DNA of 6,976 bases from Candidatus Vampirococcus lugosii (GCF_018420025.1 NZ_JAEDAM010000051.1:1-6976), one strand, 5' to 3'; numbered from the stretch's first letter, positions 2,563 through 6,959 are shown. The notes: generated from the sequence alone by a model not told the origin. Program-made: numbers and translations.

Positions 2563-2694
2563 TAGTAATTACCGTAATTATTTTAAAGGGTATAGTAATT
2601 ACAGTAATTATACTAAGGTATTTTTAGTAATTACAGTAATTATTAGCTTATATTTTATAGTAATTACTTAAATTTTATTGGTAATTACAGTTAT
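2563..2694. repeat. Array 1 of the palindromic motif GTAATTAC (5 perfect copies plus 3 one-mismatch partner sites)
   Basis: Perfect copies are at 2565-2572, 2595-2602, 2627-2634, 2660-2667 and 2681-2688. Partner sites GTAATTAT, 9 bp downstream, are at 2574-2581, 2604-2611 and 2636-2643. The 19-mer TAGTAATTACAGTAATTAT is identical at 2593-2611 and 2625-2643 and differs by one base at 2563-2581. Confidence 0.85.
2580..2593 (-). promoter_or_regulatory. Putative archaeal promoter (BRE-like ATACCC plus TATA TTTAAAAT) for the 1967-2557 gene
   Basis: The minus strand reads ATACCCTTTAAAATAATTACGGTAATTACTATATGT-ATG. The TATA centre is about 26 nt from the A of the ATG, which fits a leaderless mRNA. 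GTAATTAC sites lie on both sides of it. Confidence 0.4.
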
Positions 2695-3059
2695 TTTTAT
2701 ATAATTTATATATTTTTTATAAATTAAGTTAATAAATATATATTTATACATATCAAAAATATTTTTTATTTAATATTTTATGTATATATATTTGTATATT
2801 TGTGTAAAATTAGTCTTTTTTTATGATTTTTTTCTAATTTTTATATTTTTTTTAATAATTTTTAGTTTAAAAAAAGTTTTTATAGTCTTTTTTTATAATT
2901 TAAATATCTTTAATACCTTTAATTTTAATTTAAATTATAAATTTTGTTTTATTTTTTATTTAAAGGGTATTTATAGCTTTAAATACGTTTAATTTTAATT
3001 AATTTATATGTCCAAGAATTAGATCAAAATTAAAATTTATTTAAAAAATAGTTATTAAA
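2695..3059. other. Gene-free, ultra-AT-rich spacer with internal direct repeats
   Basis: My hand count gives about 33 G/C in 2701-3060, roughly 9% GC. Stops are frequent on the minus strand, and the only tracked ORF here (2780-2992, plus strand) is a low-complexity Phe/Ile/Leu artefact. TAGTCTTTTTTTAT occurs at 2811-2824 and 2883-2896. ATAC(C/G)TTTAATTTTAATT occurs at 2913-2930 and 2983-3000. Both pairs are about 70 bp apart. Confidence 0.5.
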
Positions 3060-3134
3060 TAGCGGGGAGTGGATTTGAACCACTGACCTTCGGGTTATGA
3101 GCCCGACGGGCACTCCAGACTGCCCCACCCCGCT
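3060..3134 (-). tRNA. tRNA-Met (anticodon CAT), initiator type
   Basis: The reverse complement folds as a cloverleaf: AGCGGGG-TG-GGGC-AGTCTGGAGT-GCCC-G-TCGGG-CTCATAA-CCCGA-AGGTC-AGTGG-TTCAAAT-CCACT-CCCCGCT-A. An A1:U72 pair and three consecutive G:C pairs closing the anticodon stem are hallmarks of archaeal/eukaryal initiator tRNA. No CCA is encoded. Confidence 0.9.
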
Positions 3135-3155
3135 ATAAAAAATAAAGAATATAGT

Positions 3156-3163
3156 ATATTAAA
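3156..3163 (-). promoter_or_regulatory. Candidate TATA box (TTTAATAT on the minus strand) for tRNA-iMet
   Basis: It is centred about 25-26 nt upstream of the mature tRNA 5' end at 3134. AT-rich background makes false positives easy. Confidence 0.35.
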
Positions 3164-3208
3164 TTAATATATATTTATATAACCAAAACTTATTTAAAGT
3201 ATTAGTAA

Positions 3209-3781
3209 TTATTCACATATATACCCTTTAGTATCATCATTAATTTTATTTAATATCTCTTCTAATCTATTTATATTTTTCTGAATATTTGTTTTCTTTC
3301 TTTTTAATGTAGTTATTTTTTTCTTAGTATCTACCATTTCTAAATTAGAATTACAATTAGGACATTTAAAATTATAACCTGCTGCTTCTTCAAAAGGTAA
3401 TTCAATACATTTTTTAGGACAATAAAAAAAGTCGTGTATTTGTTTATCTTCAATAGTATATTCTAATTTTTTAAATTTCTTCATTTCTTGAATTAATAAT
3501 ATCTCTATAATTTTTTTATATTTTATTTCCCAATAAAATTCATATAAATTATTATCTTTTCTTCTTTCTTTTTTATAACATGCAATACCTCTATAGTGTA
3601 AACTATTTAATGTAGATCTTACTACTGTTATTTTTTCATTTAATTTATCTGATACTTGTTCAGGAGTTAAAGATTGTTTTTCAAACATTTTAACAATATC
3701 TGTTGCTAAAGGTCCTGCTATTTGTTTTAAAAATTCTAATGTATTTTTATCTTTTAATAATTCTTGTTTTAATTTCTTCAT
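3209..3781 (-). CDS. tfe: Transcription factor E (TFE alpha, archaeal TFIIE-alpha homologue)
   Basis: The N-terminal winged helix (FLKQIAGPLATDIVKMF...LTPEQVSDKLNEKITVVRSTLNSLHYRGIACYKKERRKDNNLYEFYWEI) matches the conserved TFE pattern. It is followed by a zinc ribbon, YCPKKC...(17)...CPNCNSNLEMVD. Confidence 0.9.
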   Translation of the reverse strand: MKKLKQELLKDKNTLEFLKQIAGPLATDIVKMFEKQSLTPEQVSDKLNEKITVVRSTLNSLHYRGIACYKKERRKDNNLYEFYWEIKYKKIIEILLIQEMKKFKKLEYTIEDKQIHDFFYCPKKCIELPFEEAAGYNFKCPNCNSNLEMVDTKKKITTLKRKKTNIQKNINRLEEILNKINDDTKGYICE

Positions 3782-3830
3782 AATTTATCTCTTTAAAATT
3801 GGTATTTATATATATAATTATATATCAAAC

Positions 3831-4355
3831 TTATTTTAAATTAATTACATTCTTATTATCATTATTAGGTATTATTTTAATCTCTGAATTATAATCTTTA
3901 TTTTCTATAGATTTATTATCTATTAAATATAATATCATAGCAATTGCAGCAACTTCACTATGTGGTTGATTTGTTACACCTATATTATAATTAGCTATCT
4001 CATAGTATTTATGTTCTACTTTTGGTCCACCAACAATTAATAAAATATTTTTATTGTTTTTTATTTCTTTTATTTTCTTTGTAATATTTTCTCCATACAT
4101 AGTTAAATGAATAATTATGTATTTTTCTTTTTTTAATTTTTTCACAAGTTCATATGGTTTTTGTGTATAATTAATTTCAAAAGAACTTCCAAATTTATTA
4201 TTTATTTCTAAAACATTTTTTTCTATATTTTTATCTTGGATTCCAGAATAAAAAAAACTATTTGCTTTAAATGCTCTAGATACTAATGCACAATGTGTAG
4301 TTATTCTTTTATCTCTTAAAGGTCTATGATCTAATTTTAAAATCTTTATGTTCAT
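3831..4355 (-). CDS. trm56: tRNA (cytidine56-2'-O)-methyltransferase aTrm56 (SPOUT family)
   Basis: [34 protein letters not shown] and [37 protein letters not shown] align colinearly with my recollection of Pyrococcus aTrm56 ([50 protein letters not shown]). Confidence 0.9.
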   Translation of the reverse strand: [174 protein letters not shown]

Positions 4356-4468: not shown

Positions 4469-4496
4469 TTAAACAAATATAACTTTTTTTTATAAT

Positions 4497-4570
4497 GGAC
4501 CTGTAGCTCAGCCTGGCAGAGCACTGGGCTTTTAACCCAGGTGTCAGGGGTTCAAATCCCCTCGGGTTCA
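4497..4570 (+). tRNA. tRNA-Lys (anticodon TTT)
   Basis: Cloverleaf: GGACCTG-TA-GCTC-AGCCTGGCAG-AGC-A-CTGGG-CTTTTAA-CCCAG-GTGTC-AGGGG-TTCAAAT-CCCCT-CGGGTTC-A. The acceptor stem has two G:U pairs. Confidence 0.92.
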
Positions 4571-4580
4571 TAAATTAAAA

Positions 4581-4655
4581 GGGCTCGTAGCTCAGTCTGG
4601 TTAGAGCACTGGACTCTTAATCCAGGTGTCGGGGGTTCAAATCCCCCCGAGCTCA
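4581..4655 (+). tRNA. tRNA-Lys (anticodon CTT)
   Basis: Cloverleaf: GGGCTCG-TA-GCTC-AGTCTGGTTAG-AGC-A-CTGGA-CTCTTAA-TCCAG-GTGTC-GGGGG-TTCAAAT-CCCCC-CGAGCTC-A. It lies 10 nt after the previous tRNA. Confidence 0.92.
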
Positions 4656-4670
4656 CTTGGATTATATTTA

Positions 4671-4744
4671 GGTACCGTAGCTCAGTCTGGGAGAGCAATA
4701 GGCTGAAGACCTATGTGTCGCGGGTTCAAATCCCGCCGGGACCA
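4671..4744 (+). tRNA. tRNA-Phe (anticodon GAA)
   Basis: Cloverleaf: GGTACCG-TA-GCTC-AGTCTGGGAG-AGC-A-ATAGG-CTGAAGA-CCTAT-GTGTC-GCGGG-TTCAAAT-CCCGC-CGGGACC-A. It has one A4/G69 mismatch in the acceptor stem. It lies 15 nt after the previous tRNA and is followed by a T5 run (4757-4761). Confidence 0.88.
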
Positions 4745-4784
4745 CTCTAAATTCTATTTTTATTTAAATAATAATTTTGTTTAA

Positions 4785-4887
4785 TAGTAATTACTCTTTT
4801 TTTATTAAGTAATTACACAATAATTTACAGTAATTACTATTTTTCAAGTAATTACAGAATATTTTATCAAGTAATTACTATAATTAC
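4785..4887. repeat. Array 2 of the palindromic motif GTAATTAC (5 perfect copies plus degenerate partners)
   Basis: Perfect copies are at 4787-4794, 4809-4816, 4830-4837, 4848-4855 and 4871-4878, with start-to-start spacing of 22, 21, 18 and 23 bp. A one-mismatch partner ATAATTAC is at 4880-4887, 9 bp after the last copy. A degenerate TAATTTAC is at 4821-4828, 9 bp before the third copy. Confidence 0.85.
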
Positions 4888-4940
4888 ATTTTAATAGATT
4901 AAATATATTTTTAATAAGTTTTGTTACTATAAATATATTT

Positions 4941-6959
4941 ATGCAAGACAATTTAACACCAATGATGAAACAATATGTAGAGACTAAAAAAAAATATCCT
5001 GAAGGTATATTATTATTTAGAGCTGGAGATTTTTATGAGATGTTTTACGATGATGCAAAAATAGCATCTGAAATACTAAACATAACTTTAACAAAAAGAG
5101 GCTCTGAAAAAATAAATGTTCCTTTAGCTGGAATTCCTTTTCATTCTATAGATCCATACATAGCAAAATTAGTTAAAGCAGGAAAAAAAGTTGTAATTTG
5201 TGAACAAACAGAAAATCCAAAAAAAGCAAAAGGTTTAGTTAAAAGAGAAGTTACTAGAGTAATTACTCCTTCAACTTTATTTTCACAAAACTATGAAAAT
5301 AATTTTCTTTGTTCAATAACATACTTAAATTCATCCTTTGGTTTTTCAATTATAGACATAACTACAGGTGAATTTAAAGCTACAAACTTTACTAATCTTT
5401 CAACATTACTTAATGAATTAAATTCAATAAAACCAAAAGAATTATTACTTACAAAAAATATTCTTAAAAATTACAAATTATATGATGAAATAAAAAAAAC
5501 ATTACCAAACACAATTATTAATTATACACAAAATTTAGATTTAAATAACTCTTTAGAAAATCTAAAAAAACATTTTAATTTAAGTTCTTTAGAGGGTTTT
5601 GGAATTTCAAAAAATCCAGAAATAATAATCTCTTGTAATAACGCTTTAGTTTATTTAAAAGAAACACAGTTTTCTAAATTAGAATATATTAAAGTAATTA
5701 CTAGATATTCCTCTAAAAAATATTTAATGCTTGATAGAAAAACTATTAGAAATTTAGAATTAGTTTCAAATCTTCAAGATAATACTATAAAATATTCTTT
5801 ATTTTATTTAATAAACAATACAAAAACTGCAATGGGTTATAGAAAATTATTTTTTGATATAACTCATCCTTTATTAGAAAGAGAAGAAATTAAACAAAGA
5901 CTAGATGCTATTGAATATTTAAAAGATAATTTAGTTTATTTTCAATCAATTAATGAAAACCTATCATATATTTCAGATATTGAAAGAATTATAAGCAAAG
6001 TTGGTTTTAATAATGCCTCACCAAGAGATTTAGTTTCACTTAGACAATCTTTAGATATTATTCCTGAAATTAAATTTATTTTAAAAAAAACAGATAATAA
6101 ACTATTACAAGAAATAGATAAAAATTTAGAAGATGTAAAAGATTTAAGAGAATTACTACATAAATCTATTGTAGATCAACCCCCTTTTAGTGTAAGAGAA
6201 GGTAAATTTATTAAAGTAGATTATAATAAAGAATTAAATGAATTAATAAACATACATAAAACTATAGATTCCTGGATTACAGAATATGAATATAAATTAA
6301 AAAATGAATTAAACATAAAATCTTTAAAATTAAAATTTAATAAAATATTTGGTTATTACATAGAGATTCCTAAAACCTATACATCTAAAGTTCCAGATTA
6401 TTTTGAAAAAAAACAAACTTTAGTTAATGCAGAAAGATATACAACTAAAGAATTATCTCAAAAAGAAGAAACTTTAATTAATGCTAAAGAAAAAAGATTT
6501 GATTTAGAATTTCAAATATTTACAGATATTTGTAAAGATGTTTTAAATTATCAATCAACAATACAAAACATTTCTAAATATTTAGGTTTTTTAGATTTAA
6601 TAATATCTCATACAAACACATCTATAACAAATAACTATAATAAACCAAATCTAAAAGAAACAAATAGACTTTATTTTAAAGATTTAAGACATCCAATTAT
6701 AGAAAAACAAACTGAATTTATCCCAAATGATTGTGATTTAGATAATGAGAATAGAACTATGATAATAACAGGCCCAAATATGTCTGGAAAGAGTAGTTAT
6801 ATGAGAAGTGTTTGCCTTTCTATTATTTTAACACATACAGGGTGCTTTATTCCTGTTAATGACTCTGAAATTGGTTATATTGATGGTGTATTTACTAGAG
6901 TAGGCGCATCTGATGATATCTTACATGGACAAAGCACTTTTTTAGTTGAGATGTCTTAA
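4941..6959 (+). CDS. mutS: DNA mismatch repair protein MutS (bacterial MutS1 type). The ORF stops at an in-frame TAA after the STF(L)VEM motif, before Walker B and the C-terminal domains
   Basis: The N-terminal mismatch-recognition domain carries the Phe-X-Glu motif (GDFYEMF, F31/E33). Also present are the Walker A motif ITGPNMSGKSSYMRSV and the motif GQSTFLVEMS. The alignment is colinear with E. coli MutS up to about residue 675 of about 850. The stop lies 17 nt before the window end. Confidence 0.9.
   Translation: MQDNLTPMMKQYVETKKKYPEGILLFRAGDFYEMFYDDAKIASEILNITLTKRGSEKINVPLAGIPFHSIDPYIAKLVKAGKKVVICEQTENPKKAKGLVKREVTRVITPSTLFSQNYENNFLCSITYLNSSFGFSIIDITTGEFKATNFTNLSTLLNELNSIKPKELLLTKNILKNYKLYDEIKKTLPNTIINYTQNLDLNNSLENLKKHFNLSSLEGFGISKNPEIIISCNNALVYLKETQFSKLEYIKVITRYSSKKYLMLDRKTIRNLELVSNLQDNTIKYSLFYLINNTKTAMGYRKLFFDITHPLLEREEIKQRLDAIEYLKDNLVYFQSINENLSYISDIERIISKVGFNNASPRDLVSLRQSLDIIPEIKFILKKTDNKLLQEIDKNLEDVKDLRELLHKSIVDQPPFSVREGKFIKVDYNKELNELINIHKTIDSWITEYEYKLKNELNIKSLKLKFNKIFGYYIEIPKTYTSKVPDYFEKKQTLVNAERYTTKELSQKEETLINAKEKRFDLEFQIFTDICKDVLNYQSTIQNISKYLGFLDLIISHTNTSITNNYNKPNLKETNRLYFKDLRHPIIEKQTEFIPNDCDLDNENRTMIITGPNMSGKSSYMRSVCLSIILTHTGCFIPVNDSEIGYIDGVFTRVGASDDILHGQSTFLVEMS

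Follow-up and report, generated by a model that had tools for sequence, protein, structure and literature searches.

A duplicated palindrome array upstream of mutS as a candidate secondary operator cluster for a lineage-restricted winged-helix protein of Iainarchaeota

The window analyzed here is one entire contig of 6976 bp, deposited under 'Ca. Vampirococcus lugosii', a bacterium within the CPR (candidate phyla radiation). Upstream of the bacterial-type mutS gene (4941-6959, +, identified with Pfam), it carries five copies of the 8-bp palindrome GTAATTAC, hereafter called array 2 (4784-4887, no strand). Another five-copy cluster, array 1 (2565-2688, no strand), lies upstream of open reading frame 5 (ORF5; 1967-2557, −), which encodes an unannotated winged-helix protein of 196 aa. 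With moderate confidence, we read array 2 as a secondary operator cluster for this ORF5-family protein, encoded 2.2 kb away. The reading draws on the motif itself, on the paralogy of the two arrays, and on the pairing of array 1 with ORF5 in relatives belonging to the Iainarchaeota, among which the contig itself appears to fall.

Motif and layout of array 2

The perfect GTAATTAC palindrome occurs twelve times in the window, starting at positions 2565, 2595, 2627, 2660, 2681, 4787, 4809, 4830, 4848, 4871, 5259, and 5694. The expectation from 200 dinucleotide-preserving shuffles was 0.20 copies on average, with a maximum of 2, and none of the shuffles attained 12. Ten of the twelve copies are intergenic and form two five-copy clusters (2565-2688 and 4787-4878), and those at 5259 and 5694 lie inside mutS, where they encode Val-Ile-Thr in frame (RVITPS and KVITRY). 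These results were in agreement with a first-pass annotation of the same DNA, which had counted twelve copies and given coordinates and distances to the mutS ATG, had expected less than one copy per 7 kb, and had read the two copies within mutS as Val-Ile-Thr codons. All of these values were re-derived from the sequence, and the reading frame agreed.

When one mismatch was allowed, partners offset by 9 bp became visible, namely GTAATTAT at 2574, 2604, and 2636, and ATAATTAC at 4880. The resulting double site, TAATTAC-N-GTAATTA, is a 15-bp palindrome, and both GTAATTAC and the 9-bp-offset double site are common to the two arrays. A full-text literature search for GTAATTAC gave only primers and unrelated sequences, and the ORF5 family and its GTAATTAC operator were absent from the literature searched. 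The motif is, as far as can be predicted from its sequence and conservation, a genuine conserved protein-binding signal.

The perfect sites of array 2 lie at 4787-4794, 4809-4816, 4830-4837, 4848-4855, and 4871-4878, starting 154 bp and ending 63 bp 5' of the mutS ATG (4941). The spacings of 22, 21, 18, and 23 bp correspond to phases of 0, +1, +1, −2, and 0 bp relative to a helical repeat of 10.5 bp. Since all phases fall within −2 to +1 bp, the sites would lie on one DNA face, as had been proposed earlier from the same intervals. The double site previously noticed at 4871-4887 was recovered as GTAATTAC-T-ATAATTAC, in which the imperfect 9-bp-offset partner ATAATTAC occupies 4880-4887. Furthermore, a degenerate partner, ATAATTTAC, was found at 4820-4828 beside the 4830 site, and a run of seven T residues lies inside the array at 4797-4803. 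The arrays have no fixed repeat unit, but traces of local duplication are present. For array 2, Tandem Repeats Finder reported a unit of about 39 bp that contains two sites and is present in 2.2 copies, with a match of 78%.

An 8-bp direct repeat, TTTAATAG, stands on both sides of array 2 (4780-4787 and 4890-4897). It could have been left by the duplication or by an insertion, or it could have arisen by chance, given the AT-rich sequence. Insertion of a mobile element, with this repeat as the target-site duplication, was considered and rejected, because the paralogy with array 1 extends past the repeat to 4945 and because repeats of this kind are not improbable in DNA so rich in AT.

Origin of array 2

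The segment 4784-4945 aligns with 2592-2750 in direct orientation over 153 columns. In this alignment, the array 2 sites at 4787, 4830, 4848, and 4871 correspond to array 1 positions 2595, 2636 (GTAATTAT), 2660, and 2681, respectively, and the site at 4809 corresponds to a non-site. The flanks past the arrays (4888-4940 against 2693-2750) share 78% identity over 58 nt, with a local alignment score of 32 versus 16.6 ± 2.5 for shuffled sequences (0 of 2000), and the same flank scored at most 24 against other intergenic DNA of the window. When the motif was masked, the two arrays with their flanks still scored 44 versus 29.2 ± 3.4 for shuffled sequences. Judged by these alignments, array 2 and its flank appear to be a diverged local duplication of array 1's distal portion together with the flank beyond it. 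Array 1 is the likely donor, because its flank (2693-2750) is itself conserved in the non-coding region of the relative L023 (z = 5.3). All five array 2 sites are perfect despite the divergence of the spacers, and two of them (4830 and 4809) are better than their array 1 counterparts, which suggests that the sites have been maintained and are not decaying.

Array 1 and the control region of ORF5

In array 1, three sites are double, reading GTAATTAC-N-GTAATTAT (2565-2581, 2595-2611, and 2627-2643), and two are single (2660-2667 and 2681-2688). A TATA-like box of ORF5, TTTAAAAT, was predicted by direct reading at 2580-2587 on the minus strand, and the proximal palindrome AATTAC-G-GTAATTAC lies between this box and the ATG (2557). 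In the low-GC relatives the layout is invariant, with the TATA-like TTTAAAAT followed by (T)AATTAC-G-GTAATTAC, then by 7-10 nt, and then by the ATG; this TATA-operator-ATG layout is shared with L001, L003, L015, L023, L105, and L210. In the higher-GC relatives, the TATA box lies between the core TTAC-S-GTAA and a GTAATTAC. Because L054 carries the variant CATTAC-N-GTAATG, the invariant operator core can be narrowed to ATTAC-N-GTAAT. Additional sites reach 100-360 bp upstream of ORF5 in relatives.

The centre of the ORF5 TATA-like box is about 26-28 nt from the ATG and a Shine-Dalgarno sequence is missing, an arrangement that fits a leaderless transcript. An operator between the TATA box and the start is in the position from which archaeal repressors block the recruitment of RNA polymerase. 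The TATA/operator/start geometry of ORF5 would accordingly resemble that of an autorepressor. Several annotated starts of ORF5 homologues (P0009, P0010, and P0023) read MVI or MITVIIVIMVI, that is, operator DNA (ATG GTA ATT ...) translated, and these annotated starts probably lie inside the operator. The same reading of the operator as protein was seen just 5' of the ORF5 ATG in L014, L041, and L085.

Among 20 genomes, 74 spacings between adjacent sites were collected, and they gather at 9-13, 18-23, 29-33, and 39-42 bp, with peaks at 10, 21, 31, and 41 bp. The Rayleigh R was 0.71 at periods of 10.3-10.5 bp, although the loci are related and the p-value is only indicative. Because the spacings are phased throughout the family, the placement of sites on one face would be a family property, array 2 included. 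The same-face, cooperative placement suggested earlier for array 2 is therefore in line with spacings found family-wide at multiples of about 10.4 bp.

Conservation across Iainarchaeota

The pattern GTAATTAC-N{4,34}-GTAATTAC-N{4,34}-GTAATTAC was searched in one genome per species (185,579 species), blind to ORF5. The scan returned at least 120 loci, the majority of them bacterial among the matches listed. At least 14 matches were archaeal (GC 20-43%), and among the matches listed all 14 of 14 lie directly upstream of an ORF5 homologue, as determined by tblastn. One of the archaeal matches sits on a contig mislabelled 'Bacilli'. When the scan was combined with syntenic loci found via the protein, 21 distinct loci with a GC content of 20-50% were obtained, in which nearly all GTAATTAC copies are upstream of ORF5. 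The pairing of an array with an ORF5-family gene is kept in at least 20 Iainarchaeota genomes, and an array was present at every ORF5 homologue examined. Since the archaeal arrays all stand at ORF5 homologues and show the geometry of an autorepressor as well as phased spacings, array 1 is best predicted to be a conserved operator cluster of ORF5. Conservation of the arrays at orthologous positions in relatives, which the first-pass annotation had proposed as a check, was thus found for array 1, upstream of ORF5, and not for array 2 (0 of 12 relatives, discussed below).

The bacterial matches are of another kind. They are true tandem units of 22-23 bp in which GTAATTAC is embedded, unrelated to the arrays of the window, which share only an 8-10-mer and traces of duplication; a plain tandem-repeat or iteron array was rejected on these grounds. 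Such iterons holding GTAATTAC occur in many metagenome-assembled genomes (MAGs) of Bacteroidales and in a few other bacterial genomes (L013, L018, L027, L053, L069, and L088 among the loci), and one Prevotella MAG has more than 10 loci of this type.

Some relatives carry secondary GTAATTAC clusters of their own, with spacings of about 19-21 bp, at L105 2056-2104, L075 4663-4691, and L054 3314-3360 and 29-55. In L054, L075, and L105 a secondary cluster occupies the spacer in which the 3' ends of ORF5 and ORF4 converge, and in L054 another occupies the divergent tRNA/trm56 region. In addition, a double site, ATAATTACAGTAATTAC, with a single GTAATTAC about 31 bp away was observed inside the trm56 coding sequence (L003 and L133) and in the N-terminal region of the L003 ORF5 homologue, the coordinates being 8305-8352 and 10070-10114 in L003 and 7469-7507 in L133. 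All secondary clusters of relatives lie within 2.5 kb of ORF5, and each position is lineage-specific, like that of array 2. Since the relatives have their own secondary clusters, extra clusters near ORF5 appear to be a recurrent feature.

The ORF5 protein

ORF5 begins with an amphipathic helix, which a low-complexity linker rich in Q and N connects to a winged-helix domain at the C-terminus. In the alignment of the family, the N-terminal amphipathic helix is shared, the linker is variable and either acidic or Q/N-rich, and a K/E-rich tail is often present. No Pfam or NCBIfam family was assigned to ORF5. The AlphaFold2 model of the C-terminal domain is a winged helix (pLDDT 87, pTM 0.74), for which the best Foldseek matches in the PDB were Fur, PerR, PadR, MarR, STIV F93, Sso10a, and RosR, with E-values of about 2e-3 to 3e-2; the PadR structures 4esf, 5x11, 8ioi, and 5dym were among the matches. 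The PadR family (PF03551) was matched weakly by 16 of 21 ORF5 homologues (best E-value 0.0012), with a score far under the Pfam gathering threshold (15.2 bits vs. 27). The helix SLYPYLKTL is invariant across the homologues.

A search with the C-terminal 97 aa of ORF5 retrieved 24 homologues, each a hypothetical protein from MAGs assigned to 'Ca. Iainarchaeum' or Diapherotrites. In a full-library profile search among 1.84 billion representatives, the family amounted to only 40 clusters (50% identity) and did not grade into any other family. ORF5 is therefore modelled as a lineage-restricted winged-helix protein, and it would be the protein that binds GTAATTAC.

AT-rich non-coding region beside array 1

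Between array 1 and tRNA-iMet lies an AT-rich non-coding region of about 370 bp (2689-3058, no strand), in which the GC content falls to a minimum of 8.7%. A length of about 400-450 bp and periodic motifs are kept for this region in about 20 genomes (for example, L005 9570-9920 and L008 9500-9910). Short elements repeat every 60-72 bp or so, mostly beside an A-run, and read TAGTCTTTTTTTAT in the window (at 2811 and 2883), ATTACTTT in L005, L008, and L003, and CACTCAC in L020, L114, and L054. The region had no match in Rfam. Moreover, a CTTGGACA motif lies at about 3008-3015 on the minus strand.

The composite RCAC-N4-6-(T)CTTGGACA(W) recurs just past stop codons and tRNA-iMet in all Iainarchaeota loci, over a GC content of 20-50%. 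Motifs of the CTTGGACA type were seen at about 3000-3024 (−) in the window and many times in L005, L008, L014, L020, L025, L054, L067, L085, and L114. The composite may serve in termination or processing, or it may be bound by another factor.

Proposed role of array 2 and alternatives

The proximal upstream region of mutS (4888-4940, +) is the segment paralogous to 2693-2750. A TATA-like box, TTTTAATAA, was predicted by reading the sequence directly at 4909-4917, about 28 nt before the mutS ATG, and no Shine-Dalgarno sequence was found on direct reading of 4888-4940, so that the mutS promoter may be leaderless. The mutS product has the Pfam domains MutS_I to MutS_V (domains I-V), and mutL follows 3' of mutS in relatives.

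In the mechanism that we favour, the primary and ancestral target of ORF5 would be its own promoter at array 1, where it would exert autorepression. ORF5 dimers would occupy the palindromes, and the phasing of the sites would allow cooperative assembly along one face of the DNA. The very short spacer between tRNA-Phe and mutS would have received, in direct orientation, a copy of about 160 bp that covers array 1's distal portion and the adjoining flank, and this copy would then have grown in part by tandem duplication of the two-site unit. Five in-phase sites would have resulted, which span −54 to −154 with respect to the start of mutS and lie just 5' of the TATA-like box at 4909-4917. Bound to array 2, ORF5 might modulate the transcription of mutS (and mutL) by helping or hindering the recruitment of TBP/TFB, might act with the T run at 4797-4803 as a roadblock to read-through from the tRNA operon, and might contact array 1 through looping, which is a possible interaction between the arrays. 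Since mutS of the relatives begins about 30 bp past tRNA-Phe, the insertion would have altered mutS expression in this lineage, and we infer an effect of array 2 on mutS in either direction.

Several points weigh against this reading. The GTAATTAC motif was found in the tRNA-Phe/mutS spacer of none of the 12 relatives that keep this junction (L001, L003, L023, L075, L086, L105, L130, L131, L132, L133, L210, and L211), so comparative support for the importance of mutS control is absent. The assignment of ORF5 as the binder draws on its position and co-occurrence only. The promoter elements are predicted, and such elements are easy to pick by eye in DNA of 10-20% GC. Finally, the flank of array 2 also weakly resembles the region upstream of mutS in L001 (z = 3.6), a similarity that tempers the choice of array 1 as the donor.

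The 12 relatives have MutS identities of 58-70% and ORF5 C-terminus identities of up to 82%. Their tRNA-Phe/mutS spacer measures about 25-55 bp in 11 of the 12, and L105 has an unrelated gene inserted. No closer relative was present in the databases searched. The best match reached 70% identity for MutS (metagenomes), 82% for the C-terminal part of ORF5, and 61% when ORF4 was the query, and none of these relatives has array 2. Array 2 thus appears to be a novelty of the lineage of this contig. Of the shared regulon of mutS and the winged-helix gene that had been suggested before, the link to the winged-helix gene was supported by the array/ORF5 pair in at least 20 genomes (GC 20-50%) and by the winged-helix fold, and the mutS part is lineage-specific at best.

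The lineage-specific occurrence is also what would be expected if array 2 were a neutral by-product of segmental and tandem duplication, which may soak up protein and has no selected role. Its absence from all 12 relatives with the same junction, its paralogy with array 1 together with the internal tandem structure, and the differing places of the secondary clusters in each relative, as sporadic local duplication predicts, all speak for such a copy. However, five perfect 8-mers are present despite the divergence of the flanks to about 74% identity in the alignment, and a decaying copy should lose sites. Moreover, two of the 8-mers fit the palindrome better than the array 1 positions with which they align, and the helical phasing has been kept. 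We regard a purely neutral copy as unlikely.

An architectural role is quite improbable. ORF5 would then bridge the arrays in a 2.2-kb loop round tRNA-iMet, tfe, trm56, and the tRNA cluster, or the arrays would form a centromere-like or membrane-tethered site through the amphipathic helix. Two in-phase five-site clusters of one motif would suit this role, as would the location of all secondary clusters of relatives within 2.5 kb of ORF5, the conserved N-terminal amphipathic helix and flexible linker apart from the DNA-binding domain, and a conserved neighbourhood that includes the chromosome-resolution recombinase XerA and the periodic non-coding region of 400-450 bp. Against it, NTPases of the ParA, ParM, or SegA type were missing from the window and, within ±10 kb, from L001, L005, and L008. 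The second cluster is not conserved, which means that a two-cluster architecture is not the ancestral function, and local duplication alone would also yield secondary clusters nearby. A broader version of this idea, to which we give a similarly low probability, is that ORF5, the phased GTAATTAC arrays, and the 400-450 bp non-coding region make up an undescribed cis-acting locus of Iainarchaeota, such as a centromere-like, membrane-tethered, or boundary element beside xerA or a non-cdc6 origin. ORF5 would assemble on one DNA face of this locus, and array 2 would be a second anchor that loops out tRNA-iMet/tfe/trm56.

It is very unlikely that the arrays are iterons of a chromosomal origin in the AT-rich non-coding region with ORF5 as the origin-binding factor: a conserved 400-450 bp region of down to 8.7% GC with elements every 60-72 bp or so does adjoin the arrays, but orc1/cdc6 was missing from the window and, within ±10 kb, from the same three relatives, the proximal sites are laid out as promoter and operator, the non-conserved array 2 is not part of that region, and in Forterrea, the only complete Diapherotrite genome described, the origin indicated by GC skew adjoins cdc6 (PMC5905446).

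Parallels in known systems

The systems that work in the most similar way would be winged-helix regulators of archaea and bacteria that control their own genes through phased operators, with cooperative boxes like those of Ss-LrpB or dimers on inverted repeats like those of PadR. Ss-LrpB of Sulfolobus solfataricus is an Lrp/AsnC protein with a RAM domain. It binds cooperatively to three regularly spaced palindromic boxes of 15 bp (TTGYAW...WTRCAA) in its own control region and wraps the DNA. The ORF5 locus is similar in that an archaeal regulator gene has helically phased palindromes in its own promoter region, with presumed cooperative same-face autoregulation and extra targets. However, no Lrp or RAM signature is present in ORF5, its motif is GTAATTAC, and the sites are far more numerous and include the 9-bp-offset doubles.

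PadR repressors bind as dimers to inverted repeats, commonly autoregulate, and have the operator ATGT-N8-ACAT. ORF5 resembles them (B. subtilis PadR, 5x11; BCE3449, 4esf) in its winged helix and in the recognition-helix signature SLYP-x-L-x-x-L. In contrast, its score is far under the cut-off, its operator is not ATGT-N8-ACAT, its winged helix is C-terminal and follows an amphipathic helix and a linker, and its family is isolated. AspA of the Sulfolobus plasmid pNOB8 is a small winged-helix centromere-binding protein, which spreads from a palindrome upstream of its own operon and works with ParB and ParA of the same operon. ORF5 is likewise a small archaeal winged-helix protein with a palindrome before its own gene and a potential for multi-copy assembly on DNA, whereas it is monocistronic and convergent with the unrelated ORF4, and no partner genes were found.

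An analogy of the two clusters with parC of plasmid R1 had also been drawn in the first-pass annotation. R1 parC consists of two sets of five 11-bp direct iterons that flank the parMR promoter within a contiguous stretch of about 160 bp; the binding protein ParR is a ribbon-helix-helix protein, and the gene for an actin-like ATPase is adjacent. The likeness lies in the five-plus-five count and in the overlap of one cluster with the promoter of the gene for the (presumed) binder. The present arrays differ in being chromosomal and 2.2 kb apart with housekeeping genes between them, in consisting of 8-bp palindromes at variable spacings of 18-33 bp and not of 11-bp direct iterons, and in that the second cluster occurs in one lineage only. 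A parC-like centromere was rejected because of this geometry and the missing partition NTPase noted above, and the analogy does not hold.

Gene order and provenance of the contig

From its 5' end, the window holds the 3' part of a XerA-type tyrosine recombinase gene (1-402, +), a coiled-coil ORF of 85 aa (441-698, +), the gene for a PRC-barrel protein (887-1240, +), and ORF4, with no assigned function (1364-1966, +). ORF5, array 1, and the non-coding region are followed by tRNA-Met(CAU) (tRNA-iMet; 3059-3135, −), tfe (3209-3781, −), and trm56 (3831-4355, −), and then by the cluster of tRNA-Lys(UUU), tRNA-Lys(CUU), and tRNA-Phe(GAA) (4496-4745, +; ARAGORN and Rfam) directly 5' of array 2. The gene and tRNA calls agree with the earlier statement that the arrays bracket tRNA-iMet, tfe, trm56, and a tRNA block, which also holds the tRNA-Lys/Lys/Phe genes. 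The block tRNA-iMet/tfe/trm56 (3059-4355, −) keeps its synteny in all relatives, and the contexts of ORF5 homologues run through trm56, tfe, tRNA-iMet, the long non-coding region, and ORF5 to ORF4, PRC, and XerA on the opposite strand. GC skew inside the window tracks gene orientation. A structured-RNA reading of the arrays was rejected, as Rfam at permissive thresholds matched only the four tRNAs and found no other structured RNA in either array or the non-coding region.

ORF4 encodes a conserved protein of 190-200 aa and is always convergent to ORF5. Its AlphaFold2 model was confident (pLDDT 89), but Foldseek gave no fold match in the PDB (best E = 0.13), and neither a Pfam or NCBIfam family nor a homologue of solved structure was found. 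An NCBI entry filed under 'Ca. Vampirococcus lugosii' matches the ORF4 protein with 100% identity; exact look-ups of Trm56 and ORF5 gave no match. The mutS frame stops at LVEMS* near the contig end, where all relatives read on as LVEMSEVAYILN, and the final 17 nt or so of the contig (window 6957-6976) do not match mutS. The early stop could be either a chimera of the contig end or of amplification, or a real disruption.

The window encodes TFE, an archaeal Trm56, and archaeal-type tRNAs, and its gene order is collinear with 'Ca. Iainarchaeum' MAGs. Because of TFE, the archaeal Trm56, and the synteny with Iainarchaeota, the contig is judged from its gene content to be a mis-binned low-GC contaminant from Iainarchaeota (Diapherotrites, DPANN archaea) in the published bacterial bin. 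The 'Ca. Vampirococcus lugosii' assembly was obtained from micromanipulated consortia by whole-genome amplification and binning on tetranucleotide frequency (PMC8080830).

Conclusions

The contig is flagged here as archaeal DNA that was mis-binned into the published genome of a CPR bacterium. To our knowledge, gene regulation in DPANN archaea is almost uncharted, and we know of no specific transcription factor of these organisms with a known target. The locus supplies a testable pair, a lineage-restricted winged-helix protein and a sharp 8-bp palindrome conserved over a GC content of 20-50%. Within it, the conserved locus of ORF5, array 1, and the non-coding region is a more interesting object than the non-conserved array 2. 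Array 2 in turn is a natural experiment, in which an operator module was apparently copied before a horizontally acquired, bacterial-type mismatch-repair operon in one lineage, and it would be an example of regulon growth through duplication of a cis module. It also gives a hint that the expression of mutS, and hence the mutation rate, may be under dedicated control in this lineage.

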